From a virus (taxonomy: Duplodnaviria > Caudoviricetes): a stretch of 34,197 nt of DNA. Both the position numbers and the translations under genes were made by a program. Below, piece after piece: positions 2,570-34,197 of this stretch. Location of the stretch: IMG/VR virus record IMGVR_UViG_3300012953_007610, positions 1 through 34,197 of that record; one strand, written 5' to 3'. A model generated the notes under the pieces. The model saw only the letters and a list, made by a program, of their open reading frames with translations. It ran no database searches and was not told the origin of the DNA. Within the stretch, counting starts at the first letter, position 1; each line of letters opens with the position of its first letter.

Positions 2570-2570
2570 A

Positions 2571-6029: not shown

Positions 6030-6037
6030 GAGATTCA

Positions 6038-7290: not shown

Positions 7291-7312
7291 AAATGATAAC
7301 TTGGAGTTTAAA

Positions 7313-8182: not shown

Positions 8183-8183
8183 T

Positions 8184-9107: not shown

Positions 9108-9110
9108 ATC

Positions 9111-10550: not shown

Positions 10551-10574
10551 TCAAAACATTTTTGTTTTTCTTAT

Positions 10575-10580
10575 TATAAT
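10575..10580 (+). promoter_or_regulatory. Candidate -10 element (TATAAT) upstream of deacetylase gene
   Basis: Perfect TATAAT in a 56-bp intergenic gap, 26 nt before the start. No convincing -35. Confidence 0.35.
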
Positions 10581-10606
10581 TTTTAGAGAGTGTACGGAGT
10601 TTAGTC

Positions 10607-12159: not shown

Positions 12160-12169
12160 TGGAAAAAAT

Positions 12170-13042
12170 ATGAATGAAAAAATATTAGTAACTGGTGGTC
12201 TAGGCTTTGTGGGATCTCATCTTGTTGATTCTTTAGCCGATTCTGGGAATGAAGTTACTGTAATTGATAATCTTTGCTCTGAGTCTAGTAGCCGCAAATA
12301 TATGAGAAGCGATGTAAGATATTGGATTGACGATGTTAGAAATATCAATTCTTACAAATACGAAAATGAAGAGTTTGATATTGTATATCACCTAGCGGCT
12401 TTAGCAAGGATTCAGCCTTCATTTAAAGACCCTCTGACTTACCTTTCAATAGATATAATGGGAACATCAAATGTTTTAGATTACGCCCGCAGAAAGGAAG
12501 CTCGGGTCGTCTATGCAGGCTCTTCTTCAGCTTATGCAGGTCCAATGCTTAATCCGTATGCTTTTGCAAAATTTACTGGTGAACAAGTTTGTGAAATGTA
12601 TAATAAGGTATATGGTATGAGCGTAGTAACAGCTCGATTTTTTAATGTTTATGGTGATAGACAGCCTACGTCTGGTGCTTATGCAACAGTTGTTGGAGTT
12701 TTTGAAGGGCAAAAATTAAATAATAGATGCCTTACTGTTACAGGGAATGGCGAACAAAGAAGAGATTTTACTCATATATCAGATATCGTTTCTGGTTTTG
12801 AAGCTCTTGGAAAAGGTCTACACTGTGCAGAAATATACCAATTGGGAACAGGAAAAAACCATTCTATTAATGAACTAGCTGAAATGTTTGGCGGAGAAAT
12901 AGAATATATTCCACCTCGCCCAGGCGAAGCGTGGACTACTTTGGCAGATCCAGCCAGTATGGAAAAAGAAACTGGATGGGCTGCAAAAATTGATATTAGC
13001 ACCTATGTGCAAAATTGGCTTAACAACAAGTGTTTAAGCTAG
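12170..13042 (+). CDS. NAD-dependent nucleotide-sugar epimerase/dehydratase (extended SDR)
   Basis: ILVTGGLGFVGSH, YHLAA, GSSS, YAFAK (YxxxK), RFFNVYG, GNGEQRRDFTHISDIV. Confidence 0.92.
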   Translation: MNEKILVTGGLGFVGSHLVDSLADSGNEVTVIDNLCSESSSRKYMRSDVRYWIDDVRNINSYKYENEEFDIVYHLAALARIQPSFKDPLTYLSIDIMGTSNVLDYARRKEARVVYAGSSSAYAGPMLNPYAFAKFTGEQVCEMYNKVYGMSVVTARFFNVYGDRQPTSGAYATVVGVFEGQKLNNRCLTVTGNGEQRRDFTHISDIVSGFEALGKGLHCAEIYQLGTGKNHSINELAEMFGGEIEYIPPRPGEAWTTLADPASMEKETGWAAKIDISTYVQNWLNNKCLS

Positions 13043-13058
13043 TATAAGGAGAAACAAA

Positions 13059-13295
13059 TTGGTTTCTAAGAAGAGGCACCTAGCCAAAGCTTTGAGCTGG
13101 CGTACCTTAGGAACTATCGATACAATGATGATCGGATGGCTAGTGTCAGGCGATCCAATGATTGGTGTGTCTATAGGATCTATTGAGGTAGTAACTAAAA
13201 TTTTTCTTTACTATGCTCATGAAAGAGCGTGGTACAAGTTTTCAAATTTTGGATTAAAAGAGAGAATAAAGGAAAATAATTTAAATGACAACTAA
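13059..13295 (+). CDS. DUF2061-like small membrane protein
   Basis: KALSWRTLGTIDT...KIFLYYAHERAW signature. TTG start after AAGGAG. Confidence 0.8.
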   Translation: MVSKKRHLAKALSWRTLGTIDTMMIGWLVSGDPMIGVSIGSIEVVTKIFLYYAHERAWYKFSNFGLKERIKENNLNDN

Positions 13296-14241
13296 TTTAC
13301 ACTTTCATGAACATAAAATACCGACAGAACTTAAGTCAAAAAGATATGGTCATAAACCAGCAGTAGTTTGGTTAACAGGTCTTTCTGGCTCTGGAAAATC
13401 AACTATTGCTAATTTGCTTGAAGCGAAACTTTTTGATTTGGGTTATAAGACTTACATTTTAGACGGAGATAATGTGAGGCTAGGGCTGAATAACGACCTG
13501 GGCTTTAGCCCTGAAGATAGAACTGAGAATATTAGAAGAATCGGAGAGGTAGCTGCGTTGTTTGCAGATTCTGGAACAATAGTAATATCAGCTTTTATTT
13601 CGCCGTATCAAGAAGATAGGCTGAGGGCCCGTAATGCTTGTTCTCATGATTTTATTGAAGTCCATGTTGACTGTGATCTCTCTTCTTGCGAAACTAGAGA
13701 CCCAAAAGGTCTTTATAAAAAAGCAAGAGCTGGAATAATAAAAGGGTTTACAGGAATTGACGCTCCATACGAAAAGCCTAGTAATCCAGAAGTTTTAGTA
13801 AAAACAGACGAATCTTCTGTTAGCGATTGTACTGATAAAATAATCTCTTATATGGTAGAATCTGGAATTATAAATTCTTCTCTTGGAAAAATCAGCACCC
13901 TAGATAAATCAAAGACAATTGCTATCGATTTTGATGGAGTTATTCATGCATACTCTAAGGGTTTTGATGGACTTGAAAATGCATATGATGATCCCCATCC
14001 TGGCGCTGTAGAAGCACTGGATAGATTAAAAAGTGCAGGTTTTAAGCTAGTAATAATGTCTAGCAGGCCCGCTTATGTAATTAGAGATTGGCTGTGTAAT
14101 TATGGTTTAGAAACATATTTTGACGATGTCACAAATGTCAAAAGGCCGGCCAGTTTTTATATTGATGATCACGCAATAGAGTTTAAAAAGGGAGATAAGA
14201 ACTCTTGGATCAGAGCTTTAAACAAAATTTTAGATGTTTAA
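13285..14241 (+). CDS. cysC: Adenylyl-sulfate (APS) kinase fused to C-terminal HAD-superfamily domain
   Basis: VWLTGLSGSGKSTIA, LDGDNVRLGL..DLGFS..DR.ENIRRIGEVA, ISAFISPY, RDPKGLYKKARAG..FTGIDAPYE. The C-terminal ~110 aa carry IAIDFDGVIH, IMSSR and FYIDD. Confidence 0.93.
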   Translation: MTTNLHFHEHKIPTELKSKRYGHKPAVVWLTGLSGSGKSTIANLLEAKLFDLGYKTYILDGDNVRLGLNNDLGFSPEDRTENIRRIGEVAALFADSGTIVISAFISPYQEDRLRARNACSHDFIEVHVDCDLSSCETRDPKGLYKKARAGIIKGFTGIDAPYEKPSNPEVLVKTDESSVSDCTDKIISYMVESGIINSSLGKISTLDKSKTIAIDFDGVIHAYSKGFDGLENAYDDPHPGAVEALDRLKSAGFKLVIMSSRPAYVIRDWLCNYGLETYFDDVTNVKRPASFYIDDHAIEFKKGDKNSWIRALNKILDV

Positions 14242-14653
14242 GAAAGGAATGAAATTGAAAAACAAAAGAGCTTTATTTATCGGAAGATGGCAACCATTTC
14301 ACAATGGACACAAATGGCTAATTAGCCAAAAACTAAAGCATGGTATACCCTGCACAATTGCTGTGCGAGATATTCCTCCTGACAGCAAAAATCCATTTAC
14401 CACAGAACAAACTGTTGAAATGCTTACTAAAGCGTATTGCGAAGATGATGTTGAAGTTATAACAATATCTGATATAGAGAGTGTAAACTATGGAAGAGGC
14501 GTCGGCTATGAAATTAACGAGCACGTTCCGCCAAAAGATATTGGGTTTATTTCTGCTACTGAAATTAGAAAAAAGATTGCTACAAACGATCATTCTTGGA
14601 AAGAATTAGTAGATCAAAAAATTCATGACTTAGTTGCAAAATACCTACTTTAA
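14234..14653 (+). CDS. Small HxGH (cytidylyltransferase-like) nucleotidyltransferase
   Basis: FIGRWQPFHNGH, NPFT, ISATEIRK. The start may be TTG 14255, 6 nt after AAGGA. Confidence 0.85.
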   Translation: MFKKGMKLKNKRALFIGRWQPFHNGHKWLISQKLKHGIPCTIAVRDIPPDSKNPFTTEQTVEMLTKAYCEDDVEVITISDIESVNYGRGVGYEINEHVPPKDIGFISATEIRKKIATNDHSWKELVDQKIHDLVAKYLL

Positions 14654-15673: not shown

Positions 15674-16921
15674 ATGAGAAAAAAGAAGATATTAATGTTA
15701 TCAGATCATGCTTTAAGCACTTCGGGAGTTGGAACCCAGAGCCGTCACTTAATTCATGGTCTTTTAAATCAATATCCGGGCCATTGGAGCTTTAGGCAGT
15801 TTGGCGGTGCTATTAAGCACGATGACTATTCAATCAAAGTAGTAAATCCAGATTTTATAATTAAACCAACAGATGGTTTTGGTACGCAAGAGTTATTGAG
15901 ACAAACTTTAGCTACTGAAAAACCAGATTTAGTGTTAATTTTTACTGATCCAAGATTTTTTGATTGGTTGTTTGCAATGGAAGATGAAATTCATCAAGTT
16001 TGTCCAATAGCGTGGTGGCATGTTTGGGACAATAAACCATATCCAAAATTCAATGAACATTACTATCAAGCCACTGATTTAATTAACTGTCACTCTCATC
16101 TAACATACTCCATGATAGTTGAACATTTTCCAAACAAAACCAATTTTGTGCCCCACGCATTGCCAGGAGATATATACTATCCGCTTCCACATTTGGCAAA
16201 AAGAGAAGCTAGAAAAAATATGCTTGGTCAAAATAATAAAAATGATTTTGTTTTATTTTGGATGAATAGAAATGCTCGCCGAAAAAGACCGAATGATTTG
16301 CTATTAGCCTGGAAATTATTTATGGACAAAATCCAGAGCGAAGGAAAGTCTGACGCTAAGCTGATAATGCACACCCAGCCAAATGATCCAGAAGGACCCA
16401 ATCTTTTTGCAACAGGAGAGCATTTCGGTTTAACAGAATCAGTTATATTTTCTGCAGAAAGAGTTGGGTTTGACAAAATTAATATTCTTCACAATATTGC
16501 AGACTGCTGCATTAATATTTCTTACGCAGAAGGCTTTGGATTAGCAACGTTAGAATCAATGCAAGCAGGCACGCCAATTATCGCTTTAAAGACTGGTGGC
16601 TTGACAAGACAAGTTGTTGATCATAGAGATGACAGCGAAAATGGAGTTGCTCTAGACGTAGAACTCAAGTCCCTAGTTGGTTCTCAGACTGTTCCATACA
16701 TTTATGAAGATTATTGTAGTCCAGAAAAAATTGCTGATGCAATTTATAAAATGTATAGTATGAATAGAGAACAAAAATTAGAAATGAGCGAAAAAGTTAA
16801 GTCTTATGTTCACTCTGAATTTTCTTACGATAATACTATAAAAATGTGGCACGATTCAATGATTGATACTATAGAAAACTGGAAATCAAATTATTCTCGA
16901 TGGACTTTGGAGGAAAAATAA
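15674..16921 (+). CDS. Glycosyltransferase family 4
   Basis: KILMLSD...SGVGTQ, NRNARRKR, ISYAEGFGLATLESMQAGTPII...GGL. Confidence 0.9.
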   Translation: MRKKKILMLSDHALSTSGVGTQSRHLIHGLLNQYPGHWSFRQFGGAIKHDDYSIKVVNPDFIIKPTDGFGTQELLRQTLATEKPDLVLIFTDPRFFDWLFAMEDEIHQVCPIAWWHVWDNKPYPKFNEHYYQATDLINCHSHLTYSMIVEHFPNKTNFVPHALPGDIYYPLPHLAKREARKNMLGQNNKNDFVLFWMNRNARRKRPNDLLLAWKLFMDKIQSEGKSDAKLIMHTQPNDPEGPNLFATGEHFGLTESVIFSAERVGFDKINILHNIADCCINISYAEGFGLATLESMQAGTPIIALKTGGLTRQVVDHRDDSENGVALDVELKSLVGSQTVPYIYEDYCSPEKIADAIYKMYSMNREQKLEMSEKVKSYVHSEFSYDNTIKMWHDSMIDTIENWKSNYSRWTLEEK

Positions 16922-18078
16922 TGAAAAATGTAGTAATTCGTGCACCATTACTAACAATGTCAGGGTATGGTGTCCACTCCAGACAAGTCTTTAGATGGTT
17001 AGAAACTAAGGATATAAAAATACACTCTCAATGTCTTCCCTGGGGTATCACTCCATGGTATGTTAATCCAGATAAATTAGACGGTTTGGTCGGTCGAATT
17101 ATGCAAACGGCCCAACCTCCGAATTCTAAACCAGATATTTCTTTTCAAGTTCAGCTTCCTAATGAATGGGATCCCAATATAGCAAATTATAATGTCGGTA
17201 TAACCGCCGCAGTTGAAGCAGACAAGTGTAATCCAGAGTGGATAAACTGCTGTAACAAGATGGATAAAATAATTGTACCTTCTACGTTTACCAAAGAGTG
17301 CTTAGAGAATTCTGGGAAATTATTAGTTCCAATAGAAGTCATTCCAGAAGCTTTTTTTGAGTGCTTAGCTGACGAAAATAATGAAAAACATTTAGATTTG
17401 AATCTATCTACAGATTTTAATCTATTAATATTTGGCCAAGTGACAGGGAACAATCCCTATTCGGATAGAAAAAATACATTTTTTATGATAAAGTGGCTAT
17501 GCGAAGAATTTGCTGATAACCCTGATGTTGGTATCATCATTAAAACTAACCAAGGTAGAAACTCCACTTCTGACAGGATCATGACGTCTAGGATGATAGA
17601 TAAACTTTTATCAGAAGTCCGTAAGGGAGAATATCCAAAAGTTTATATGTTGCACGGTGCTTTAGAGCCAGAAGAAATTCAAAGTGTATATCAAAACAAA
17701 AAAGTCAAAGCCTTAGTTTCTGCAACAAGAGGTGAGGGGTATGGTTTGCCTCTTCTAGAAGCCGCTACAGCTGGATTGCCTGTTATGGCTACTAATTTTT
17801 CTGGCCATCTAGATTTTTTGAATAACGGGAATTTTATAAAATTTGATTATGATTTATCTCCAGTTCACCAATCTAGAATTGATGGGCAGATATTTGTACC
17901 GGGCACGAAATGGGCCGAAGTAAAAGAAGAAGACTTTAAGAGTAAAGTCAAAAAGTTTTACAAATCGTCTCAAAAGCCAAAAGAATGGGCAAAAGAACTA
18001 TCATCGGTTTTAAAGTCGAAATACTCTCAAAGCTCCATTAATAACTTATATTCAAAATCTTTTAGTAAGGTATTATGA
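16921..18078 (+). CDS. Glycosyltransferase family 4
   Basis: SGYGVHSR, IIVPSTF, DRKN, TRGEGYGLPLLEAATAGLPVMATNFSGHLDF. ATG 16921 follows GGAGG in a TAATG overlap (track start 16900). Confidence 0.9.
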   Translation: MKNVVIRAPLLTMSGYGVHSRQVFRWLETKDIKIHSQCLPWGITPWYVNPDKLDGLVGRIMQTAQPPNSKPDISFQVQLPNEWDPNIANYNVGITAAVEADKCNPEWINCCNKMDKIIVPSTFTKECLENSGKLLVPIEVIPEAFFECLADENNEKHLDLNLSTDFNLLIFGQVTGNNPYSDRKNTFFMIKWLCEEFADNPDVGIIIKTNQGRNSTSDRIMTSRMIDKLLSEVRKGEYPKVYMLHGALEPEEIQSVYQNKKVKALVSATRGEGYGLPLLEAATAGLPVMATNFSGHLDFLNNGNFIKFDYDLSPVHQSRIDGQIFVPGTKWAEVKEEDFKSKVKKFYKSSQKPKEWAKELSSVLKSKYSQSSINNLYSKSFSKVL

Positions 18079-21474: not shown

Positions 21475-21975
21475 ATGGCTGAGCAAAATCAAAATTTCAA
21501 AGTATACGATTTCCAATCTGTTGGAGAATCACTGGTTTCCTTTCAGAAAAATCGGAGACTAGGTGAAACTGTAAAGACTCCAATTGGAATAGCTACCCCA
21601 ATGGAGTTAGCCACCGGCGAGGGTGGATTATTTGTTATGCATAAGGATTTAGGATCTCAAGTCGCTGATAATTTGAGAAATTTAATCTTGACAAATCATG
21701 GAGAAAGATTGGGCCAATATGATTTTGGTGCGAACTTACAAGAACTTACGCTAGAATTGGGAAATGAAAATTTTGATACAGAAGCAATTAGAAGAATTAA
21801 AACTGCATGCGCTAAATACATGCCGTTCGTTAACTTGAGTACTTTTGAGCCATTTAAAGAGAACCAAGGTTCTAGCGGTGGAATAGCAAAAGTCGGAATA
21901 AGGGTAACATACTCAGTACCTTTAGCTCAATCAGGATTAAAACAAATAGAAGTGATTCTATATACGGCAGGATAA
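21475..21975 (+). CDS. Baseplate wedge protein, gp25/GpW family
   Basis: QVADNLRNLILTNHGERLGQYDFGANL...KYMPFVNL. Confidence 0.9.
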   Translation: MAEQNQNFKVYDFQSVGESLVSFQKNRRLGETVKTPIGIATPMELATGEGGLFVMHKDLGSQVADNLRNLILTNHGERLGQYDFGANLQELTLELGNENFDTEAIRRIKTACAKYMPFVNLSTFEPFKENQGSSGGIAKVGIRVTYSVPLAQSGLKQIEVILYTAG

Positions 21976-21976
21976 T

Positions 21977-23818
21977 ATGGCAGCACCAACAAAAACAAAA
22001 AAATTAACTAACAAAAGCTATCTTGGAAAAGACTTTAATTCTTTTAGACAAGACTTGGTTACATACTCTAGAAATTATTTTTCTAATCAAATCCAAGACT
22101 TTTCTGAAGCTGGTGTTGGAGGAATGTTTGTAGAGTTAGCTGCTTTCGTTGGCGATACAATGGCATTCTATTTAGATCACCAATTTAACGAGCTTAATCC
22201 AGAGACAGCTATAGAAGTTAGAAACGTTCAAATGCATGCTCGAAATGCTGGTGTTAAAATGACCGGAGCTGCACCTGCTGTAGCAGAAGTAACATTTTAT
22301 GTTGAAGTACCAGCTGCGGTTTTGAGTGATGGAACTTATTTTCCAGACATGAAAACTTTTCCAATTATTAAATCCACAACTCGCCTCATATCAAACTCAG
22401 GTATAAACTTTACTCTTACAGAGGACGTAAATTTTGGGGAATTAGATATTAATGGCCAGCTTTTAGCTGATTTTAATGTATCTACCACTGATTCTTCGGG
22501 AAATCCTGCAGCCTATATTCTAACTAGAAAATCAGCATGCATTTCAGGAAAAGTTAAAACAGATAGATTTAATATTCCGGATGTTTTAATTCCCTTTAGA
22601 AAAGTAACACTTACCCAAACTGATGTTACTGAAATTATTTCTGTAGTCGACGCTTCTGGAAACCAATATTATGAAGTAGAATCTTTATCTGAAGATACAG
22701 TATTTAAGAGGGTACAAAATTTAGGTTCTGACAGAGATGAAGTCGCTGCAACTTTAGAAGTTATTCCAGCTCCTTACCGCTACACAACTGCGATGGATTT
22801 TACAACTAGGCTAACTTCACTCCAATTTGGTTCTGGAGAAGCCCAAGCTACAGATGATGATATTATTCCAGACCCTAGCGATTTAGCTCTTCCACTATAT
22901 GGTAGGAAACAATTTTCTAAATTTTCTCTTGATCCAAACAGACTTTTAGGTACTCAGACACTGGGTATTTCTCCAAAAAACACTACTTTAATAGTAGATT
23001 ATCGATATGGAGGTGGGATAAATCACAATGTTAGTTCTGATTCAATAAGAAATATCTCTACGTTAGATATAATGTTTCCAATGGCGCCATCGACAGAAGC
23101 TCAAAATGCTGTTATCTCTTCTTTAGACGTTAAAAATAAATCCAACGCTTCTGGTGGATCTGCATCTTTAACGCTTCAGGAGTTGAGAAGCTTGGCAAAT
23201 CTTTCTAGAAATCAACAATCAAGAATTGTTACCCAACAAGATTTACTAGCTAGACTTTATACGTTGCCAGCAGTGTTCGGCAGAGTATACAGGGCTGGTC
23301 TTAGAAAAAATGAAGAAAATCCACTATCAACAGAACTTTATATAGCGTCACTAGATAAAAACAGTAATCTCACAATTTCGCCAGATTCTTTAAAGAAAAA
23401 CTTAAGAATTTATTTAAATGAGTTTAGATTAATTTCAGATGCAATCGATATTCTAGATGCTACAGTAATCAACTATAGAATTAATTTTAGTATAATCTGT
23501 ACTCCTTCTTCAAATAAGAGCTCTGTTTTGGCTAACGTTATTTCTGAAATTAAGAGAGTAAGCGACTTAAAATATTTTCAGATAGACCAACCAATTGTCG
23601 AAGCCGATGTTATTAATGCTATAATAAATACACCTGGAGTCTTATCTATGGTTTCTTTAGAGTTTTCTAATGTGTATGGAATTGTTGGAGGATACACTTA
23701 TTCAGATTTTCAATTTGATATGAACGCAAATCTCTATAAGGGATTAATCGTTGGACCTTATGGATCTATTTTCGAAATAAAGAATCCAGATTTTGATATT
23801 ACTGGAACGGCGGAGTAA
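21977..23818 (+). CDS. Baseplate wedge protein, T4 gp6/P2 J-like
   Basis: YLGKDFNSFRQDL, DFSEAGVGGMFVELAAFVGDTMAFYLD, LQFGSG, YRYGGG, ASGG, RIVTQQDL. Confidence 0.88.
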   Translation: MAAPTKTKKLTNKSYLGKDFNSFRQDLVTYSRNYFSNQIQDFSEAGVGGMFVELAAFVGDTMAFYLDHQFNELNPETAIEVRNVQMHARNAGVKMTGAAPAVAEVTFYVEVPAAVLSDGTYFPDMKTFPIIKSTTRLISNSGINFTLTEDVNFGELDINGQLLADFNVSTTDSSGNPAAYILTRKSACISGKVKTDRFNIPDVLIPFRKVTLTQTDVTEIISVVDASGNQYYEVESLSEDTVFKRVQNLGSDRDEVAATLEVIPAPYRYTTAMDFTTRLTSLQFGSGEAQATDDDIIPDPSDLALPLYGRKQFSKFSLDPNRLLGTQTLGISPKNTTLIVDYRYGGGINHNVSSDSIRNISTLDIMFPMAPSTEAQNAVISSLDVKNKSNASGGSASLTLQELRSLANLSRNQQSRIVTQQDLLARLYTLPAVFGRVYRAGLRKNEENPLSTELYIASLDKNSNLTISPDSLKKNLRIYLNEFRLISDAIDILDATVINYRINFSIICTPSSNKSSVLANVISEIKRVSDLKYFQIDQPIVEADVINAIINTPGVLSMVSLEFSNVYGIVGGYTYSDFQFDMNANLYKGLIVGPYGSIFEIKNPDFDITGTAE

Positions 23819-23821
23819 AGA

Positions 23822-25387
23822 ATGTATTATATCATAACAGCCAGTTTAGACACTTATATAACAGACAAAATTATTGATAATAGGTTCAGGGCTAGAGACG
23901 CCAATGTCGGTGAAGCTGGAACAGTAGATCTATTTAAACTGTATGATGAATCCGTTTGGGTATCCGGATCAACTAAGATCACGGGTTCAGTTACAGAAGA
24001 TTCAAAAGGTCTTATAAAGTTTGATTTAGGAGCTATTAATTCTTTAACAGCTTCTTCTTTAGATTTGAATTCATCAAATTTTCAAGCTAAATTAAAAATG
24101 TTTGATATCATGGCTGGTCAAGCTACTCCATCAAACTATAGTCTTATTTTATACCCCTTATCGCAATCATTTAGCGAGGGTATAGGAAGAGATGTCGCTT
24201 CTTTTAGCGATTTAGACGTTTCTAACTACATAACAGCTTCTATAAACAATGGTAGCCCTGTTTTGTGGCATCTTTCTGGTGCGAACAGTGGCGGAGAGCT
24301 TGGTGACGAAGAATTAGATTATATAGAGTATGCAACAGCAACCTCTCCTGGATTCCAGTCTTATGTTGATTTTGGATTTCCGCAGTATTTTAAAAATGGA
24401 AATGAAAACCTAGAAATTGATGTAACAACTTTTGTAAGTTCAGCTTTAGCAGAGCAAATTCCAAACCACGGATTTATATTATCTTTTTCGGGGTCTAACG
24501 CAACAGATAAAAAGAGTCGCTTTGTAAAGAGATTCGCTTCTCGCCATTCTTCAAACCCGTTTTTAGTTCCGCAACTTCATGTTTCTTGGGATGATAGTGT
24601 AACAGATAATCATAAAGATTTTGTTTTCGATCATAGTGGATCTTTGTTTTTAAGAAATTATGTAAGAGGCGTACCGGCAAATATCTTATCTGGAACCAGT
24701 GCTACAGAAATTACGGGTGATGAATGCATGACCCTAAAGATTCAGGTACAAGATTTTTCGAAAACATTTGACGTAGATCAACATTCGGCTGGAACAGATA
24801 ATAGCTCCATAGATGGTCTTTACTCTTCCTCTTTTGCAGTATCTACTTTTGATTCTACAGAAGTAAACGCTTCAGGAGAAGTCATAAGCGACCTGATACA
24901 AAAAAGTGGTTCTGTTACTTTTGACACTTATTGGATTTCTATAGATGAGACTATTGGGTTTCATACAGGTACGCTAGTTGTAGAACCCACAAGAAAATCT
25001 AGCTTTAAAAAGCAACCATCAGATTTAATCTTTAGGTTTATAAATTTAGAAACAGAATATAACAAAGAAGATGAAGTATACATAAGCGTTTTTGTCGAAG
25101 ACTTTTCTAAAGAAGATAAAGTCTACAAAATACCATACTCAAAAGAAAGCATTAGCTTAAGCCAAGTATACTATAGGGTTAGGGAGTTAAAATCGAATAG
25201 AGTAGTTATTCCTTTTGATGATAAGAAAGAATCTACTAAAATATCTTCGGACGATAACGGCCTATCATTTTATTTTAGAATGTCTAGTTTACCGAAAGGA
25301 TTTGTTTACGCTTTTGATCTTTTAGTAAAAGATTATGGAGAAAATAGGATTTATAACGAAGCTAGTGGTAGATTTAAGGTGGTATAA
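23822..25387 (+). CDS. Putative virion structural protein (beta-sandwich, DNRLRE/CBM96-like N-part)
   Basis: DTYI...LIKFDL...AKLKMF...EIDVT...PNHGFIL...FASR...PQLHV pattern, located in the baseplate operon. Confidence 0.55.
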   Translation: MYYIITASLDTYITDKIIDNRFRARDANVGEAGTVDLFKLYDESVWVSGSTKITGSVTEDSKGLIKFDLGAINSLTASSLDLNSSNFQAKLKMFDIMAGQATPSNYSLILYPLSQSFSEGIGRDVASFSDLDVSNYITASINNGSPVLWHLSGANSGGELGDEELDYIEYATATSPGFQSYVDFGFPQYFKNGNENLEIDVTTFVSSALAEQIPNHGFILSFSGSNATDKKSRFVKRFASRHSSNPFLVPQLHVSWDDSVTDNHKDFVFDHSGSLFLRNYVRGVPANILSGTSATEITGDECMTLKIQVQDFSKTFDVDQHSAGTDNSSIDGLYSSSFAVSTFDSTEVNASGEVISDLIQKSGSVTFDTYWISIDETIGFHTGTLVVEPTRKSSFKKQPSDLIFRFINLETEYNKEDEVYISVFVEDFSKEDKVYKIPYSKESISLSQVYYRVRELKSNRVVIPFDDKKESTKISSDDNGLSFYFRMSSLPKGFVYAFDLLVKDYGENRIYNEASGRFKVV

Positions 25388-28300
25388 TGGCCGGTAATAC
25401 TTTTTCAAAAGGAAATTTATTTTCCCCTACCATAATACAAAGAGCCTTAGAGGGCTCCGGTGCTGTGTATGATGTAAATCTACAAAATTACTCAGGATCT
25501 AATATTACTGGTAGTAATTCTTATATTTTCGATGACCCAGGTGGGCCTTTTAGATCAACACAACAGATTCCGATTGATTGGTCAAAGTTCGAAAATCACA
25601 CTTTTTTTAATTCTGCGGAATCTAAAGTTAATGTTTCTTTTGATTCTATCATAAACTATTTTCCGTTTGACGGATCAAACCAAGAAATTCAAGATTTTTT
25701 AGATGGATTAAGTGGATATGAAAAGTTTGTATATGATATGTTTCCAAAGCAGGTTGGGTATCTACTTTTTTCGGGAACTCAAGAAACTGAAACTCCAGAA
25801 AATGGTTGGCCTGAAAAGCTTGGAACTTATGTACAAGTAGATGATATAGCTGGATCACTATACCCTTCTTTATCTAGAAATACCAGTGGATTGAATATTT
25901 TAAATCCTAACAAAAAATCTATATCGTTTCAGTTTTGGATAAATTTTCCACCAGAAGAATCTATAGAACAAACAGTATTTCAAAAATTGGAAGAGGATAC
26001 GGGTTTATCTCTTTTTGTAGCTGAGTCTGACGCAAATAAAGCAGATTTAAGATTTGTCGTTTCTAGCGGATCCAACGTCATGTCAGCCAGTTATGTGATT
26101 CCAAAGAATGAATTTGTTCACTTGTCTACATATTTCGATAGAGAAGCTACGGGTCTTTCTAATTTAAAGATATTTCACACCGGAACTTTGGTTGCTTCTA
26201 GCTCTAATTCTGTCACTTTTGGAGAAATGAACTTCTCAAGCTCTCCACTTTTACTTGGATCAGGATCCGCTCATCCTCTTGGTAATCTAGATTCTGGAGA
26301 TTTTTCTCCCTTAGTTACTTTAAGCGCTTCTCTTGATGATTTTAGGTGTTATCATGGTAAAAGGTTGCCTAGAGACATAAGGGCAGACTATTTAAAAAAT
26401 GCTTATCCATCTTCAGATTTAAAGCTTTATTTTAAGTTTAATGAAGCATCCGGATCGTATGTCAACAACCAAGTTATTTTAGACAGCTCTGGAAATTCTC
26501 TTCATTCAAATATTTCTAACTTTAATTTTAAAAGTAGAGATCAGCGGATGGGTACTCCGCCTTTGCCGCTAGAAAGACATGATCGCAACCCTGTCCTTTT
26601 TCCTGGCCAACCAGACGTAATAACTCTAAATAAAAGACTCTTAGCAGAAGCGAGCCAGTATGATAATAACAACCCAAATTTAATAACGAGATTAATTCCG
26701 GAGCACTATCTTTTAGAGTCTGATGCAGCTCAAGGGTTTGAAGATACTTTTGCTGATACTGGCAAAGATTATTCTTATAGTATAGATTTCCCCGGCGGGG
26801 GAAAAATCGGACAACCCCAAATTATTGCTTCTTTACTTTTTACTTGGGCAAAGTTTTTTGATGAACTTAAAATATTTGTAGACCAGTTTGGTAATTTATT
26901 GAACATAGACTATAATGAAGATGGAACGATATCTGATTATATGCTTCCATTTTTGTCAAATTATTATGGCTTTACACTTCCAAACAACTTTTCTAACGCA
27001 GATTATGCGCAATATTTGCTAGGCGAAAACTTAAATGTAGACCCGGACATATCTTCAAGGGCTTTATTTAAAGTCCAGACCGAGATTTGGAGAAGAATAT
27101 TAGTAAACCTGAATTCAGTTATTAGGTCTAAAGGTACAGTTTCAGCAGTTAAGTCTATAATGAGGGCTTCTGGAATAAACCCAGATTCAATGTTTAGATT
27201 TAGAGAGTTTGGAGGGTCTAGAACAATAACAACAGAGGATGCTAGAAGAAACAGATCAGAAATTGCATCTCAACTTTATTTAAGTTCTTCTGATGCTAGT
27301 GTAACATCAATGCACTTAAGCGCTTCTAGGGTAGAGCCCGGATTTCCTTATGCTTCAGACCCTACATCCCCAAGAAGAAGTGATGGATTGTTAACAAGCG
27401 GATCTTGGTCTTTTGAGGGTCTATATCAATTTGATTTCCCATTCTCTAGAAAAGAACCTGTTACGCAGAGTTTAGCAAGATTTTATATAACTGGTAGCGA
27501 ATGGGAGACTACTCATAGCCATGGCGGATTAGTGTCAAACTTGGTAGCATTTGGAACTGGTAGCCAGCATGGAATGACTGGATCTCTTAGTTTATATGCC
27601 AGACCAAACTCTGATCCCGATGCACCGTCAATGAGATTAATATTGACTGGTGTAAATATTTTCGATAAAAATAAGTGGCATATAACGTTTGGAAGAAATA
27701 TAGGCACAGAAAATAATCAGTTGATCACTGCTTCTTATTTTGTTAGAGCTAATAGGTCTAACAATGGAGAGATAGTAGAGTCCTACAGTACCTCTTCAGT
27801 TGTTAATTTGGGCGCAAAAGAATTTGATTGTTTTTCACAGGCGACAGACCAATTTAATACTTCGGGTTCATTTTTTGAAGTAGGGGGTGGAGAATCTAAA
27901 TCTCAGATTTTGGAAGATGGATCTAGGTTTCTAAATTCCACAACCGCAGTTACAGATCCAGACGCAAGATTCAGTCAATTAAATGCAAAAGTTTCTGGAA
28001 TTAGGTTTTGGACTTTACCACTAAACATAAAAGAATCAAAAGAACACTCTAGAAACTTTAAGAGTGTTGGAGTTGAAAACCCACAAATAAACTACAACTT
28101 TGTTAATTCCGCATCTGGATCTTGGGAAAAATTAAGAGTCGATGCAAACGTAGATCAAGAAATAACTCAGTCAGACGACGACGGATCAATATCTATTTTT
28201 GACTTTTCGCAAAATAATTTCATTTTGTCTGGTAGCGGTTTTGAAAAATCTCATAGAGTTATAAATCCGTCGCTATTTACTTATTCTATATTGGATCCGA

Positions 28301-28854
28301 GTTTCGGCGAGCGAAGTGCAGAAAATAAAATTAGAGTAAGAGGTTTTCAGAATGAAGTGAATATCTCTGAATTTAATGCGCTTAAGTCTCCTGTTAGACA
28401 GATAGAGCCTGGCCAACCGACTCTTGATGATTCTAGATTCAGCATCGAAGTATCTGCTGTTGGAGCGCTCAATGAAGATATAGTAAACATTCTGGCCGGT
28501 TTAGACTGGCTAGATAACGCGATTGGAAATCCAGAATTACAATTTGCTTCTGATTATCCGTCGTTAAGAAGCCTTAGAGAGGTTTATTTTCATCGCTTAA
28601 CTAATAAAGTTAATTTTGATAATTTGTTTCTTTTTTATAAGTGGTTTGATGATTCTCTTTCAGTAATCATTGAGAGGTTAATACCGAGAACTACTAAATA
28701 CTTGGGGATAAATTTTGTTATTGAATCTCACTTTTTAGAAAGGCCAAAATTTAGGAATATGAATAACAACATATATTTATCAGCTTCTGACAGAAGAGAT
28801 ATTAATAACGAATTGTTAATTGCGGTCCTTTCGGGTATATTGTCGAGGTATTAA
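25387..28854 (+). CDS. Large baseplate wedge-like protein (P2 gpI/T4 gp7-like core) with LamG/ConA-like domains
   Basis: Core LPFLSNYYGF...IWRRILVNL..VIRSKGT.SAVK. LamG-like segments ISFQFWI...EFVHLS...LDDFRCY and WSFEG...KWHITF...VSGIRFW. Confidence 0.65.
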   Translation: MAGNTFSKGNLFSPTIIQRALEGSGAVYDVNLQNYSGSNITGSNSYIFDDPGGPFRSTQQIPIDWSKFENHTFFNSAESKVNVSFDSIINYFPFDGSNQEIQDFLDGLSGYEKFVYDMFPKQVGYLLFSGTQETETPENGWPEKLGTYVQVDDIAGSLYPSLSRNTSGLNILNPNKKSISFQFWINFPPEESIEQTVFQKLEEDTGLSLFVAESDANKADLRFVVSSGSNVMSASYVIPKNEFVHLSTYFDREATGLSNLKIFHTGTLVASSSNSVTFGEMNFSSSPLLLGSGSAHPLGNLDSGDFSPLVTLSASLDDFRCYHGKRLPRDIRADYLKNAYPSSDLKLYFKFNEASGSYVNNQVILDSSGNSLHSNISNFNFKSRDQRMGTPPLPLERHDRNPVLFPGQPDVITLNKRLLAEASQYDNNNPNLITRLIPEHYLLESDAAQGFEDTFADTGKDYSYSIDFPGGGKIGQPQIIASLLFTWAKFFDELKIFVDQFGNLLNIDYNEDGTISDYMLPFLSNYYGFTLPNNFSNADYAQYLLGENLNVDPDISSRALFKVQTEIWRRILVNLNSVIRSKGTVSAVKSIMRASGINPDSMFRFREFGGSRTITTEDARRNRSEIASQLYLSSSDASVTSMHLSASRVEPGFPYASDPTSPRRSDGLLTSGSWSFEGLYQFDFPFSRKEPVTQSLARFYITGSEWETTHSHGGLVSNLVAFGTGSQHGMTGSLSLYARPNSDPDAPSMRLILTGVNIFDKNKWHITFGRNIGTENNQLITASYFVRANRSNNGEIVESYSTSSVVNLGAKEFDCFSQATDQFNTSGSFFEVGGGESKSQILEDGSRFLNSTTAVTDPDARFSQLNAKVSGIRFWTLPLNIKESKEHSRNFKSVGVENPQINYNFVNSASGSWEKLRVDANVDQEITQSDDDGSISIFDFSQNNFILSGSGFEKSHRVINPSLFTYSILDPSFGERSAENKIRVRGFQNEVNISEFNALKSPVRQIEPGQPTLDDSRFSIEVSAVGALNEDIVNILAGLDWLDNAIGNPELQFASDYPSLRSLREVYFHRLTNKVNFDNLFLFYKWFDDSLSVIIERLIPRTTKYLGINFVIESHFLERPKFRNMNNNIYLSASDRRDINNELLIAVLSGILSRY

Positions 28855-29849
28855 TGTCAAGCGAATACAAACCAGATTTTCAGAAAAAGCGGATGAGAGT
28901 CTACCCAGCTCTTAGCGAGTCACAAGATACAGCCCAGGGCTATCAAGTAAAATCAACGTGGTTTGCTCAAAGAACTTTGCCTGTTCTTGGAAGAGGCGAA
29001 GACAAATTATTTTTCAGCTCTTCCGTTGGCGGTGGAATAACCAATATTACTGAGCAGCCATTTTTTAATGATTGTATCGTTGGAAAAGTAGAAGTAAGCT
29101 CAAACGAAATATTTTCAGGCTCAAGAGATGATAGTCTTCTAGCTAATTTTAGTGCTGGTGAAGGTGTTATCCAAACAAGGTTTTCATATGATTACACAGG
29201 CGCTACTTGGGGATTAACAGATACCGATCCATTTGCTGGTAAGCCATGGTGGGATAAACCAAAATATAACGCAGTAGAATACATGAAAGATTCTGGTTCT
29301 CTGCAATGGCCAATAGTTAATGATGATCCCTCCGCTGTAGACATACTAGATTATAATGGAGTTATTGAGCCCATAACAATTAGGTCGGTAATTGGAATGT
29401 CCAGTACTTTTATGGGCGATACTCTAGACCCCGAACCTCATTCAGTAAGAGCCGGCATCGGCGGCGGGTATATTGAAGAACAATATAACCGGTTTAATTT
29501 ATGTACGAATTACTATACTTTAAAAGATTCAAACAAAAATTATCCATTTTCTTATGTTGTTGATTGGCACATATACGAAAACTTTTCTTTTACTGTTCCA
29601 GACTCTGCATATACTTTCGACGATAATTTAAATGATGGTCCTAGATTTATTGAAAAGACTTTAGCAGAAATAATATACGGAAAAATTAGAGACCCTTTAA
29701 TAAAAGACTATTTGTCTCATCAATCAAGTAGCTCTTTAGGCGCTGATGATAAACCAACGCCAGACTCTATTTCAAAACCATGCGGGTTTACATATGAGAA
29801 TTGCTCTCATGGAACTGATTCATTATCTTTTGGAGGACTTTTAAAGTGA
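28854..29849 (+). CDS. Hypothetical virion-associated protein
   Basis: 331-aa ORF translationally coupled on both sides (TAATG, GTGA) within the structural operon. Confidence 0.7.
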   Translation: MSSEYKPDFQKKRMRVYPALSESQDTAQGYQVKSTWFAQRTLPVLGRGEDKLFFSSSVGGGITNITEQPFFNDCIVGKVEVSSNEIFSGSRDDSLLANFSAGEGVIQTRFSYDYTGATWGLTDTDPFAGKPWWDKPKYNAVEYMKDSGSLQWPIVNDDPSAVDILDYNGVIEPITIRSVIGMSSTFMGDTLDPEPHSVRAGIGGGYIEEQYNRFNLCTNYYTLKDSNKNYPFSYVVDWHIYENFSFTVPDSAYTFDDNLNDGPRFIEKTLAEIIYGKIRDPLIKDYLSHQSSSSLGADDKPTPDSISKPCGFTYENCSHGTDSLSFGGLLK

Positions 29850-32800
29850 GAAAAGATTTTAGAATTAGAAATTATCATAATCTCAATGTAGCAATTAAAT
29901 CATATAACCAGGTTGGCAACCTGACTCATTACTACAGGTTATTTTCAGCCGACGATGATAGCATAGATTCTGTCATTCCGAATATCCAGAACAGAGATGG
30001 CAAACCAGCTGTTGCTAACGAAGTAACCACTCTTTTATCTTCTCCTTATAAAGATATCTTGTATTCAAGTCACATATCTGAAGATCCAACTTCTTATTAT
30101 AGAGTTCCTTTTGGAGATGCTACTTTTAAGCCGTTTAGAAATAGAAAAACAGCAAAAACTGTAGCGCTGTGGTTTTCTCTTCCCAAGCTTTGGGAAACTA
30201 TTGGAGATCCAACAAGCGACGTTCAAATAATCTTTAATAAAATTGCAGCCGGAGAATCAAGCTGGATTGATGAAGGCGAGATCTCAATTTCTTATATTAA
30301 GAGCACCAATTCAATCAGGCTTAGTATAAATGGCACAAACCAAGACCCAGCTCAAGCAGTATATCCAGCTGGTATCAGAGAACAACACTTTGATCTAAAT
30401 ATAGAGAGCAAAAATTTAAATGATTTTGACAATCCAATCCGACCAGGAGACTGGATTCATTTTGCATTTACGCAAAAAAATCTTGATGATTATTCTAGTT
30501 CTGGGATTAATCAAATAGCAGATATATTCTCCATTTATATTAATGGGCAAGACGCTATGCTCGGTTCTAGTTTCTGTAATGGCGGAGACGGTGGAAGCTA
30601 TGGATCTAACGATGGATACATATCGGAATTCTGGCGACCATTTATGAATAAGGGAGATATGCTAATAGGAAGAGGTTTGCCAGACATAGATTCTGGCGCA
30701 GGAGCTCTTCCTGGATTATTAAGTGTTATTGATTTGGCAGTTTGGAATACAGATTTACCAATAGAGGCTGTTGAATCAATATACTCTACATCTCAATATT
30801 TTGAAGGCACCGGTTTTCTTAGCTTGGGCCCAAGAGTACAGCTTAGAGAAGAAATAGAGATTGGTGATGCTTATTTAACGACTACAGGTATTCCAAAGCA
30901 GAAAATTTCTAATCCATTTCCGGCAATACCGTATGCTTCGCAAAATCCTTTTAATGATGCTGACACGGTTATTTTTCACGATAATGAGCTGAAAGAGTTA
31001 CAGTACCCAACTGGTCTTCCAGTGCAGTCTTTATCTACAAATACCCGCGTGTCTTGTTCATTAGCGACTCCGAACTCTTTACCAACCATTCAAGCTCCGG
31101 GTTTCACCAATTCAGAATTACTTGGAAAATATTATACTACAGACCAGATAAAAAAGACAATAGAAAATTCTCCATTTAATGATGCGATTGTTGCTCCCAA
31201 TCAAGACACTTCTTTTTATGGACCAACAACAAGTATAAGTGGATTTTCTAGAAAAGTCAGAGATAAAATACAGTTGGTTGTAGAGCTTCCAGTGAATGAA
31301 GTCTCTAATGTAACTAGGCATTCTTCTCATTGGGATTCGTTTGCGACTACAAATAATTACATTTATCCAGATGATACTTTAACTACGAATAATATTAATC
31401 CTCACTATGATCCAGATGGAGAGTTCCACGGATTAGACTTAACAGGGTTTTTATATTATAATTTTGAGAAAGGGATTTGGGAGCAGAAAGGTCTCAATGA
31501 CGTTGTCACTGGCGAGATGTTGCCTGCTGAGGCTGTGGCACAGCAAACCAAAGCCCAAAATCTCTTTATTATAAATGGACCACCAAAACACTATATTGAT
31601 GGCAATCCTAAGCTGAACTCAGGAAGTTTTAATTTTCTTAGAATGTTTTATCCTGGCGGAAGTTATTACGGACATTCCCAGTATCCAGGTGGTGGATATG
31701 GACAAATGGAAGATGCTGACGGTAATCCAGTTCAAACAGAACTCAGTATAACAGACAAGCAGCTATCAGCTAACGTTGGTTCTCCAATTTGTTCTCATGG
31801 AGCTCCCAACGGAATTCAATATTTTGCTACTTCAAGCCAAACTATAAAAATGAGTGAGTACATTGAAGCGCCATTTTTATTAGAAAAAGTAGTGTTAGAA
31901 ATAGAAGATACTGTCGCTAGAAAAATATACGATTACTCTTCATACGGAAGTTCGCCTACTGCTGGTAGACCCCAAGACGATTATGTTTTCTTCTTGATGC
32001 GGCAAGAAAGAACTTTCCCCGGTTTTGATCCCCAAGAACCAGTTTCTAATATGGGAGAAGAATTAATTTCTATAGAAGCTTCATCAAGCCTCAGGTATTT
32101 GATATGTTCTGGAGTTGCATCTTTTTATAACAACGAAAGAAGAATTCCTGGAAAATTAGACTCAAGTACCCCTGCACGCTGGCAAACATATAATTCTCCT
32201 GCGTTCCAATACGATTTTAACCATGAAATTGACGGCTCAGATATTGATCCGATGATTAGAACCGGTTCGATTGTTTTGGAAATGGAGCCTGCAGTTGCTA
32301 GTAAGAAAATATATGGAAATATGTTTATCCCAACTTGGGATGGTAGTCATGCTCTATACATAACGCAGTCTTCTCCTCTTTTTAATCTATACCAGTCGCA
32401 ATCATGTACTGTTCCGGGTTTTTGGCCTGGTGGCACAACAACTCTTCCGTTGAACGGTATTTTTTCTGGTAGCCGAAGTGATGTATATTCAGTGCCATTT
32501 TCACTAGCTCAAACTGGGAGTACTGATGAAGCCTGGTGGGGAAGATCAACAGACAAATCTCAATATAATATAAGAACATTTTTCCAACTTAATCCTTATA
32601 GGTTTCCAATGGAATCTGATTTCTTTGGAAGAGAGATAGACCCCAGAACTTATAAACCTTTTGGTGGAGGTGGATCCGCAACTCCGCTAGCCGGATATTC
32701 TGATATAACTACACCATTGGCAGAAAAATTTGACCAATGGAATATGGGTTTTGCAGACAATTTATCAAAATTAAACGCTAAATCACCCTATCTCTTATTT

Positions 32801-34197
32801 CCAGATGATGAACTGGTTCTTGGTTTGGATGCTGCCTTGGGTTGGACTGCCACAATGGCTGCTGGAATAACAGACGATGCTAGAACAAATGACGGGGAAG
32901 ATGGGTGGAATCATAAAAGAGTTGTCGGCGCTAATAATTTAACAGGTTCTCTATTGAGATTAGAGGCTGGTCAAGTTATGAAGTTAAGACTTTATGGTTC
33001 TATGATCAAAGACCAAGTTCAAGCGCCGAAATATCCAGAAATAGATACGATGCAGAATAACATAACAGATCCTATTATAGGTTCTCATGTTCTGGATCAA
33101 TACGATATAACAGGATTACAAGCCAATTCTGGCTCTTATAGAGAGCGGCTCATTACTGGTTCTATGGTAAATGGAAGCGGACCTGGAAGAGTAGAAAATC
33201 CAGGTTCTGAAACTAGAGGCTCTGCTTTAAATAAGGGTGCGTTTAGATATAAAACAATTTATGGCCACACGTCCACCAAGTCCAACCATACTGGATGGCC
33301 TAACTTTTTAGGCGCCGGAGCTATTCAATCTACAGTCATAACATGCTCAATATCTTCTAGATTAACGAAACTAAAATATCCTGATGGTTGGGCTTCTAAC
33401 CCATATAATCCTGCTGCTCCAGGTCCAGATATGAATCATATTTATATTAGATTTTTATCTGGTTCTAGTGATTATGTTAGGGGGCACGGTCCCGAATACA
33501 ATTTAGATAGAATAATGTGGGGAAATCCGCCTGATCCAAGTGGCAACCCCCCAACATCAGGAGATGATTCAACGGGCGGAAATCCAGACGGAAAAATATA
33601 TCCTGCGCCCGATGAAATTTGGTGTCGGACTGGACAATCATTTGATTTTTGGGGCAATGACTCAAATATCATCATGAATTCGCTCCTCCGAGCATTCAAT
33701 GGAGAGTCAAACTATGGTGCAGACCCATCTCAACCCTGGGCTACATCGTCGCCTTATGATAACCCGCCCGGAAGTTATTATGTTATTTTTGGTGAAAGTT
33801 TTAACCCGTCTGTTGGTATTCCAGGAATCTCGGCAGAGTTCACTTCAAATGCTCCATACACGTCCCTTGGTCTAAAAGCAGAGGGCGGAACTTTTGGTAA
33901 CGGTGCTTTCTTCCTGCAGTCTTCATGTTCTCATGAGCCTGGATACCTTATTCCTGGAGATTCTTGGGCTTATGATATAGATGAGTCGTGGCTGTATGAT
34001 CCAGATAACACGAATGATCCTAATGAGCCGGTTATTCTTTACAGGTCTTCCGGTTGGTATAAAAATGTTGATGCCATTAATAGACCTTCAGATACCATGC
34101 TTCCATTCACTCTCTCTACTGGCGATTTTATCGCGATAAGAGGCACTGGGACGACACTAGACGATGCACCTGGGTTTTGGATAAAAAAAGACGAAGC
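29846..34197 (+). CDS. Giant structural protein (>1450 aa) with N-terminal LamG-like domain, 3'-truncated; absent from ORF track
   Basis: GTG 29846 in a GTGA overlap, GGAGG at 29832-29836. Manual translation is stop-free to the window end (MRKDFRIRNY...GFWIKKDE). LamG-like TVALWF...GDWIHFAFT...IYINGQ...IDLAVWNTDL. Confidence 0.88.
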   Translation, partial: MRKDFRIRNYHNLNVAIKSYNQVGNLTHYYRLFSADDDSIDSVIPNIQNRDGKPAVANEVTTLLSSPYKDILYSSHISEDPTSYYRVPFGDATFKPFRNRKTAKTVALWFSLPKLWETIGDPTSDVQIIFNKIAAGESSWIDEGEISISYIKSTNSIRLSINGTNQDPAQAVYPAGIREQHFDLNIESKNLNDFDNPIRPGDWIHFAFTQKNLDDYSSSGINQIADIFSIYINGQDAMLGSSFCNGGDGGSYGSNDGYISEFWRPFMNKGDMLIGRGLPDIDSGAGALPGLLSVIDLAVWNTDLPIEAVESIYSTSQYFEGTGFLSLGPRVQLREEIEIGDAYLTTTGIPKQKISNPFPAIPYASQNPFNDADTVIFHDNELKELQYPTGLPVQSLSTNTRVSCSLATPNSLPTIQAPGFTNSELLGKYYTTDQIKKTIENSPFNDAIVAPNQDTSFYGPTTSISGFSRKVRDKIQLVVELPVNEVSNVTRHSSHWDSFATTNNYIYPDDTLTTNNINPHYDPDGEFHGLDLTGFLYYNFEKGIWEQKGLNDVVTGEMLPAEAVAQQTKAQNLFIINGPPKHYIDGNPKLNSGSFNFLRMFYPGGSYYGHSQYPGGGYGQMEDADGNPVQTELSITDKQLSANVGSPICSHGAPNGIQYFATSSQTIKMSEYIEAPFLLEKVVLEIEDTVARKIYDYSSYGSSPTAGRPQDDYVFFLMRQERTFPGFDPQEPVSNMGEELISIEASSSLRYLICSGVASFYNNERRIPGKLDSSTPARWQTYNSPAFQYDFNHEIDGSDIDPMIRTGSIVLEMEPAVASKKIYGNMFIPTWDGSHALYITQSSPLFNLYQSQSCTVPGFWPGGTTTLPLNGIFSGSRSDVYSVPFSLAQTGSTDEAWWGRSTDKSQYNIRTFFQLNPYRFPMESDFFGREIDPRTYKPFGGGGSATPLAGYSDITTPLAEKFDQWNMGFADNLSKLNAKSPYLLFPDDELVLGLDAALGWTATMAAGITDDARTNDGEDGWNHKRVVGANNLTGSLLRLEAGQVMKLRLYGSMIKDQVQAPKYPEIDTMQNNITDPIIGSHVLDQYDITGLQANSGSYRERLITGSMVNGSGPGRVENPGSETRGSALNKGAFRYKTIYGHTSTKSNHTGWPNFLGAGAIQSTVITCSISSRLTKLKYPDGWASNPYNPAAPGPDMNHIYIRFLSGSSDYVRGHGPEYNLDRIMWGNPPDPSGNPPTSGDDSTGGNPDGKIYPAPDEIWCRTGQSFDFWGNDSNIIMNSLLRAFNGESNYGADPSQPWATSSPYDNPPGSYYVIFGESFNPSVGIPGISAEFTSNAPYTSLGLKAEGGTFGNGAFFLQSSCSHEPGYLIPGDSWAYDIDESWLYDPDNTNDPNEPVILYRSSGWYKNVDAINRPSDTMLPFTLSTGDFIAIRGTGTTLDDAPGFWIKKDE

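Follow-up and report, generated by a model that had tools for sequence, protein, structure and literature searches.

The 34,197-nt stretch of viral DNA analyzed here (IMG/VR record IMGVR_UViG_3300012953_007610, positions 1 to 34,197; hereafter the window) encodes, downstream of the baseplate gene gp6, four consecutive proteins in which the tripeptide motif [S/T]-[G/A]-S, i.e. SGS, TGS, SAS or TAS, occurs about four times as often as expected. Comparison of sequences leads us to propose, with a probability of roughly 0.6, that this motif is a sequon for phage-encoded O-glycosylation of the virion, read by a conserved pair of glycosyltransferase (GT) genes lying upstream, GT4d (15674..16921, 415 aa) and GT4e (16900..18078, 392 aa as called). 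These genes, like all 30 main open reading frames (ORFs) of the window, are on the + strand. The position of the four motif-rich ORFs after gp25 and gp6, together with their folds, suggests that they encode peripheral virion proteins.

Enrichment of the motif in the window

Motif numbers were compared with expectations from composition-controlled shuffling (3000 shuffles), and paired counts are given below as observed/expected. The 521-aa protein after gp6 (p521, 23822..25387) contained 8 motifs against 1.56 expected (p = 0.0003), the 1155-aa LamG-domain protein (p1155, 25387..28854) 18 against 2.88 (p = 0.0003), and the open giant ORF of at least 1450 aa, which runs off the contig end (29846..34197), 8 against 3.36 (p = 0.022), all of them beyond residue 590; the 2 motifs of the 331-aa protein (28854..29849) were not significant alone (0.74 expected, p = 0.17). 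When the four proteins were pooled (3457 aa), 36 motifs were observed against 8.6 expected (p = 0.0003), the maximum among the shuffles being 20. Non-structural ORFs of the window (6313 aa) showed 2 motifs against 5.7 expected, and the proteins from the hub to gp6 (1424 aa) 2 against 2.5. These values reproduce exactly the hand counts of the original prediction (8, 18, 2 and 8 in the four proteins, 2 in non-structural and 2 in inner baseplate proteins), and the shuffling test that it had proposed shows that the enrichment survives control for Ser/Gly composition, which is thereby ruled out as the cause.

SGS was the top tripeptide of the four proteins (18/3.4, Bonferroni 2e-4). TGS (9/1.8), SAS (5/2.2) and TAS (4/1.2) fail Bonferroni correction in the window alone, yet are enriched across relatives. 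A DNA repeat as the origin of the motif was likewise excluded, as had been claimed, because the codons vary and the third Ser is encoded by both TCN and AGY at 29 of 29 well-filled aligned sites.

Motif grammar and its conservation among relatives

For p521, p1155 and gp6, relatives were dereplicated at 80% identity before counting. Relatives of p521 (n = 43) had 385 motifs against 65 expected and those of p1155 (n = 31) 372 against 94, whereas relatives of gp6 (n = 46) had only 19 against 52. Compared with matched random tripeptide classes, the motif ranked top in p521 and p1155 and near the bottom in gp6, gp25 and GT4d (gp6: 55/144, ratio 0.38, within the lowest 0.9% of 1760 matched random classes; gp25: 5/28, ratio 0.18; GT4d: 0/14.6). 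The depletion in pooled non-structural proteins of the relatives was not significant (58/97, 12.7th percentile).

Over 74 dereplicated relatives, the favoured forms were SGS (328/56), TGS (198/34), SAS (117/43) and TAS (114/27), while among the near-forms SGT reached 77/34, TAT 19/17, NGS 23/32 and DGS 41/32. Thus Ser or Thr, but neither Asp nor Asn, is favoured at position 1; position 2 prefers Gly, followed by Ala and weakly by Ser; and at position 3 Ser far exceeds Thr. An Asx/ST-turn would be expected to favour Asp and Asn at position 1 as well. At aligned sites the four favoured forms interchange and turn over (58 and 94 distinct columns), and the three positions co-occur 1.5-fold over independent columns (approximately 0.4 to 1.5 for 15 control classes). 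As proxies for exposure we used secondary structure and substitutions: residues that replace lost sites are hydrophobic in 11–15% of cases against a background of 33%, and the flanks of these sites stay hydrophobic while the replacements are polar. The residue preceding the motif is rarely Asp (0.1-fold) or Glu (0.3-fold).

Other recognition motifs were considered and rejected as explanations, since none is enriched in these proteins: the N-glycosylation sequon N-x-[S/T] (283/263 and 441/441), the motif of the host Bacteroidota, D-[S/T]-[LIVTASM] (137/154 and 161/179), and plain Ser-Gly, i.e. Ser-Gly followed by a residue other than Ser (172/165 and 275/264). The last result, together with the depletion of acidic residues before the motif, contradicts the proposed analogy to Ser-Gly attachment sites of glycosaminoglycans in proteoglycans. 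Altogether, the motif behaves as a recognised unit, and its enrichment is lineage-wide, ordered and split between outer and inner proteins.

Co-occurrence of the motif with the GT4 pair

All six whole genomes tested that have both GTs were motif-rich, including that of the distant phage RM378, and none of seven records without GT4e showed a comparable motif excess (for four of them, only part of the record was covered). GT4e, the gene whose presence follows the motif most closely, was found in 11 of the 31 records searched, including all three viral contigs of at least 90% completeness, the Flavobacterium phage immuto, the Microcystis phage Mel-JY01 and RM378. It was not found in LR756508, LR756511, LIS04, RsoM2USA and Syn9, and the remaining 15 misses are fragments of 3–70% completeness.

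The record LR756508, a sister of the immuto group in a midpoint-rooted gp6 tree, holds 24 of the 25 genes common to five motif-rich genomes, and GT4e is the only one missing (this profile covers only genes found by BLAST in all five genomes). Per 1000 aa, its outer orthologues have 2.1 motifs and its inner ones 2.2, so the contrast between the two sets is lost; the corresponding values in the five motif-rich genomes are 7.4–11.0 and 0–1.2, where the comparison between genomes is what counts and not the value of immuto itself, on which the outer set was partly picked. Further phages bearing GT4d only were searched for and none was found; when the LR756508 gp6 served as seed, just 3 of 80 loci belonged to its own clade, all of them short contigs. 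TJE1, an unrelated Tetrasphaera phage of 49 kb, has a GT4d-like gene with sugar genes (9460-10731), without GT4e and without motif excess (27/21).

At genome scale, SGS ranks first among all tripeptides of the immuto proteome; it is concentrated in the sheath, fibres, spikes and post-gp6 proteins, and the portal, terminase, tube and gp6 have none. SGS and TGS rank 1 and 3 in G015 and 5 and 6 in RM378, and one or other of them ranks 4 in Mel-JY01, 8 in G003, and comes first within the structural region of G001. When RM378 is set aside, sheath motifs of the other five genomes fall at positions 60–325 of T4 gp18 and none in the C-terminal half, and capsid motifs fall mostly at 140–220 relative to T4, many of them in insertions; we take these sheath and capsid regions to face outward. 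The tail tube has no motif in immuto, Mel-JY01, G001 and G015 and one in G003. Control genomes gave 28/40 for T4 (95 of 169 kb), 20/21 for LIS04 (41 kb), 23/21.5 for RsoM2USA (41 kb) and 163/142 for LR756511.

Two repeat-rich genes were also noted. The annotated tail spike of immuto (97658-100816) holds 53 motifs, arranged in near-tandem units, where 12 would be expected. In Mel-JY01, a 1016-aa ORF of Ser/Gly/Thr repeats (2-3049) lies close to a multi-domain protein of 1227 aa (4747-8427) that includes a second GT4e-like domain; the two could possibly form a second, repeat-directed glycosylation module.

The sugar island is not what the motif tracks

The window begins with a variable sugar island (1..14653) of candidate glycan-extension genes, comprising GT2 and GT4 enzymes, a methyltransferase, a nucleotide-sugar dehydrogenase, an epimerase, a sulfotransferase-like gene, a PIG-L-like deacetylase, an ATP-grasp protein and an adenosine-phosphosulfate (APS) kinase. 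For four island GTs, the motif-rich immuto, G003 and G001 yielded no homologue at E < 0.01, and these GTs were rejected as readers of the motif. Hence the motif tracks the conserved GT4 pair (15674-18078) and not the variable island, and most island genes are not needed for it. The idea that the motif is a selected recognition site for the adjacent GTs and that its enrichment follows GT presence across relatives was accordingly supported in part: for the core pair, in respect of enrichment, unit behaviour and co-occurrence with phage GTs, and not for the island enzymes.

Within the island, the segment 7301-14653 encodes the dehydrogenase, the epimerase, the deacetylase, the sulfotransferase-like protein (below the Pfam cut-off) and the APS kinase fused to a HAD domain, a gene set that would in principle be enough for a sulfated, uronic-acid-containing glycan.

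GT4d and GT4e as a predicted heterodimer

Both proteins match PF00534 (Glycos_transf_1) above cut-off, and in the window clade both keep the E-x7-E motif (E286/E294, invariant in GT4d, which belongs to phrog_2170, and E279/E287 in GT4e). The GT4e model has a predicted local distance difference test score (pLDDT) of 90 and matches GT-B folds, the best being the chlorovirus protein B736L (PDB 3OY2; Z 29.4, root-mean-square deviation (rmsd) 3.1, 340 aligned); the best sequence-profile match of GT4d is to chlorovirus B736L/A546L (E 2.7e-11). GT4d and GT4e are therefore putative glycosyltransferases of the GT-B/GT4 type. Of 80 loci, 66 had enough sequence upstream to be examined, and GT4d directly precedes GT4e in all 66; gp6 lies no more than 10 kb further on in 62 of 62, and RM378 likewise has the adjacent pair.

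The complex predicted for GT4d with GT4e scored 0.88 (best of 3 controls, 0.00), with contact agreement of at least 96% and partner pLDDT of at least 90, a mark also reached by 116 of 157 solved pairs and by 2 of 215 mismatched pairs. The predicted interface joins the C-terminus of GT4d (residues 409–415) to residues 247–256 of GT4e. This modelling supports the formation of a heterodimer, with GT4d as predicted first partner.

The lineage is large: among 7992 candidates scored, 3838 were GT4e-like proteins, and a separate count gave at least 572 viral stretches. GT4d of G001 (L131:4022-6685, - strand) has 888 aa and contains an intein bearing a LAGLIDADG domain, which suggests a strongly conserved, important gene. 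In Mel-JY01 (83441-84929), GT4d is spread over two consecutive ORFs (190 and 302 aa), which may reflect gene splitting, an intron or an error in sequencing; the genome is motif-rich nonetheless.

Observations against glycosylation by the pair, and other explanations

Several observations weigh against reading the motif as the sequon of the GT4 pair. The test of loss within the lineage consists of LR756508 alone, i.e. a single event, and this genome is more acidic and poorer in Ser/Thr, with a diffuse twofold excess of the motif (9/4.5 in outer and 10/4.4 in inner orthologues, 205/148 overall). Two motif-rich relatives lack a detected pair: G014 (70% complete) gave no GT4e match, and L063 showed no GT pair within the 10 kb searched of its 461-kb contig. 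In RM378, the shared outer orthologues are only mildly enriched (6/2.6) and the GT4e catalytic motif is degenerate. Counts over relatives share kinship and are not phylogenetically independent. Moreover, B736L binds GDP-mannose but is without a known acceptor (PMC9614988), so that likeness to B736L does not settle the function of the pair.

Against this reading also stands the L081 subclade, which keeps both GTs (8 contigs with both) with intact catalytic motifs and has far fewer sites (58/20.8 in 15 p521 and 40/21.5 in 10 p1155 orthologues); L385 has about one motif per protein. Having the pair thus does not force high motif density, and since most sites were lost with the GTs kept, most sites are dispensable for the fold. 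A replacement tripeptide was sought in this clade and none was found, SGS still holding rank 2 (57/19). GT4e R277H, beside the catalytic motif, occurs in 9 of 9 sequences of the low-motif clade and in 0 of 78 held-out sequences, although it represents one evolutionary event, the pattern that found most held-out sequences contains this Arg, and Lys stands at this position in the motif-rich immuto group; as a cause of low motif density it is a lead only. Overall GT substitution counts do not follow motif density. The low-motif members L378, L381, L382, L392, L395, L400, L402, L406 and L412 also show approximately 10 GT4d changes at otherwise conserved positions.

The best-surviving alternative, in our view an unlikely one, is a structural preference: beta-rich outer virion proteins would favour the tripeptide in turns, caps or exposed strands and simply inherit it within the lineage, and the GT pair would act elsewhere, for example on DNA or the host surface, co-occurring as a core trait. 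Hydrophobic residues do flank the motif, the low-motif clade retains its GTs, and phage GTs are known to glucosylate DNA (PMC12619734). In the p521 model, sites 223 and 362 coincide with helix caps, of which site 223 becomes Asp and site 362 is mostly kept in the low-motif clade, which also speaks against the sequon. However, the eight sites of this model are distributed over two strands, three loops, one strand start and two helix caps, so strands, loops and caps alike carry them, and orthologues replace most sites by unrelated polar residues. NGS and DGS are not enriched, gp6 and gp25 are depleted, and there is no excess in the beta-rich fibres and baseplate of T4 (18/32.5) or in Syn9 (50 kb, 36/30.7). 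Immuto, in addition, carries a set of 7-deazaguanine DNA-modification genes, so that there is less need to invoke a DNA role for its GT pair.

Next in order, and again improbable, is recognition for another modification or by another enzyme, which could come from the host cytoplasm or be a less conserved phage enzyme such as a methyltransferase, a kinase or the GT2 at 1-1625. The sequon-like grammar and the avoidance in inner proteins leave the chemistry unnamed, and the shared-gene profile is limited by what BLAST finds in all five genomes. Homologues of this GT2 are strong in G003 and G001 but weak in immuto and Mel-JY01, and RM378, which has GT4e, gave no match to it; among the 25 shared genes it is GT4e alone that LR756508 misses. 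As to a host enzyme, the Bacteroidota system is periplasmic with a D-[S/T]-hydrophobic motif (PMC12871550), which is not enriched here. The recorded hosts of the relatives are Flavobacterium, Rhodothermus and Microcystis, and this difference favours a phage enzyme as the reader. Least likely, although the motif is short, ordered, exposed and present in many copies in several virion proteins, is a docking site for a lineage chaperone or decoration protein during assembly, since no shared non-GT gene is missing from LR756508 and a Ser/Thr-centred tripeptide with small residues would make a poor stable docking site.

Proposed mechanism

If the motif is the sequon of the core pair, GT4d and GT4e would read [S/T]-[G/A]-S as a heterodimer in the cytoplasm of the infected cell and place the first sugar or sugars on motif hydroxyls from nucleotide sugars; the modified hydroxyl would be that of either the strict third Ser or the interchangeable first Ser/Thr. 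Because some sites lie on strands, priming may take place before or during folding and assembly. Elongation and decoration of the glycan would next fall to enzymes of the variable island, so that every phage would have a sugar coat of its own, whose possible roles include shielding from proteases or defences, altered adsorption and stability. We infer in this scheme that the pair acts on protein rather than on DNA, that priming requires GT4e, and that the island acts as described. For the wider picture, a large and widespread lineage of aquatic T4-like phages with its own sequon-directed O-glycosylation, in which a heterodimeric GT4 pair primes numerous sites on each particle, sites are selected for outside and purged at assembly interfaces, and swappable islands, in this phage with genes for sulfation, uronic acids and deacetylation, build strain-specific, possibly sulfated coats, we would put the chances at about even.

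Genomic context and placement of the phage

On the 3' side of the island, the gene order is a PD-(D/E)XK nuclease, GT4d, GT4e, a late-sigma-like gene, gp25, gp6 and the four motif-rich ORFs. The baseplate wedge genes gp25 and gp6 (21475..23818) encode the inner proteins that served as internal control. p521, a candidate outer baseplate protein, combines a CBM96-like beta-sandwich with an Ig-like C-terminal domain in its model (pLDDT 89.3; fold match 8wab, Z 17.7, rmsd 2.5, 172 aligned). p1155 is likewise a candidate outer baseplate protein, its LamG domain being seen in the L001 orthologue and in LamG clusters. The final third of the giant ORF (32900-34197) is rich in Gly, Pro, Asp and Asn; GC content climbs to 0.425 in the last kilobase of the window, where giant-ORF orthologues vary widely in length.

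Matches to gp6 were found in 6 of 50,697 phage records at approximately 31%, namely four Flavobacterium immuto records, Mel-JY01 and LR756508. The window represents part of the genome of a large T4-like myophage whose relatives include Immutovirus, Mel-JY01 and RM378. The capsid protein of its relative G003 (the window itself contains no capsid gene) matches those of immuto, Mel-JY01, LR756508, LR756511 and RM378 (E 3e-41 or better) ahead of cyanophages (approximately 1e-28) in a comparison by sequence matches. In Far-T4 phages the major capsid protein clusters with RM378, separate from T4 and cyanophages (PMC4360716), and the parent phage of the window probably belongs to this group.

Significance and comparison with known systems

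A sequon read by a two-gene phage enzyme, if true, would extend virion glycosylation to a large lineage, explain why these phages combine core GTs with variable sugar islands, and make glycosylated phages predictable from sequence. Phage virion glycosylation would thereby gain a defined sequon, and glycoengineering a portable cytoplasmic O-glycosylation tag of three residues. As the cultured members immuto and RM378 carry both the motif and the pair, the proposal is directly testable. Searches of an open-access library for phage glycosylation or the motif listed no report of [S/T]-[G/A]-S, and the string 'glycosyl' is absent from PMC13282480. The present analysis contributes the predicted GT4 heterodimer, the finding that LR756508 lacks a single shared gene, the scarcity of the motif in inner proteins, and a caution from the low-motif clade.

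As far as our searches reach, phage virion glycosylation is established only in mycobacteriophages, at few terminal sites. There the GTs are phage-encoded, as they are here, the modified sites are the C-termini of capsid and tail-tube subunits, and the glycans are proposed to be a shield (Freeman et al. 2023, as cited in PMC12619734, PMC11256854 and PMC10877033). Unlike these, the candidate sites here are many and internal and are located on baseplate, fibre, sheath and capsid proteins, with 0–1 sites in the tube; this comparison concerns the motif as read from sequence and not the glycans. The Bacteroidota system also uses a three-residue O-glycosylation motif, in the host phylum recorded for a relative, and differs in the motif; PMC12871550 describes it as periplasmic with en bloc transfer and calls it the only known motif-driven bacterial O-glycosylation. 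Chlorovirus B736L/A546L are likewise virus-encoded soluble GT-B proteins, with only approximately 15% identity and an origin in an algal virus.

The best functional analogue is GtfA/GtfB, the complex that primes serine-rich repeat adhesins with O-linked N-acetylglucosamine and in which GtfB is the chaperone (PMC6973325). GtfA is a distant fold match of GT4e (Z 18.1 compared to 29.4 for the best), there is no DUF1975 Pfam match, the proteins are approximately 100 aa shorter than GtfA, and a Pfam search found no accessory Sec family among the 30 window ORFs. Unlike the chaperone GtfB, both partners here keep the two catalytic-motif glutamates, and the sites are dispersed in globular beta proteins instead of serine-rich repeats. 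What the two systems would share, given that the complex here is a predicted one, is a pair of adjacent GT-B genes, a cytoplasmic complex acting on Ser/Thr, and variable extra GTs that extend the glycan.

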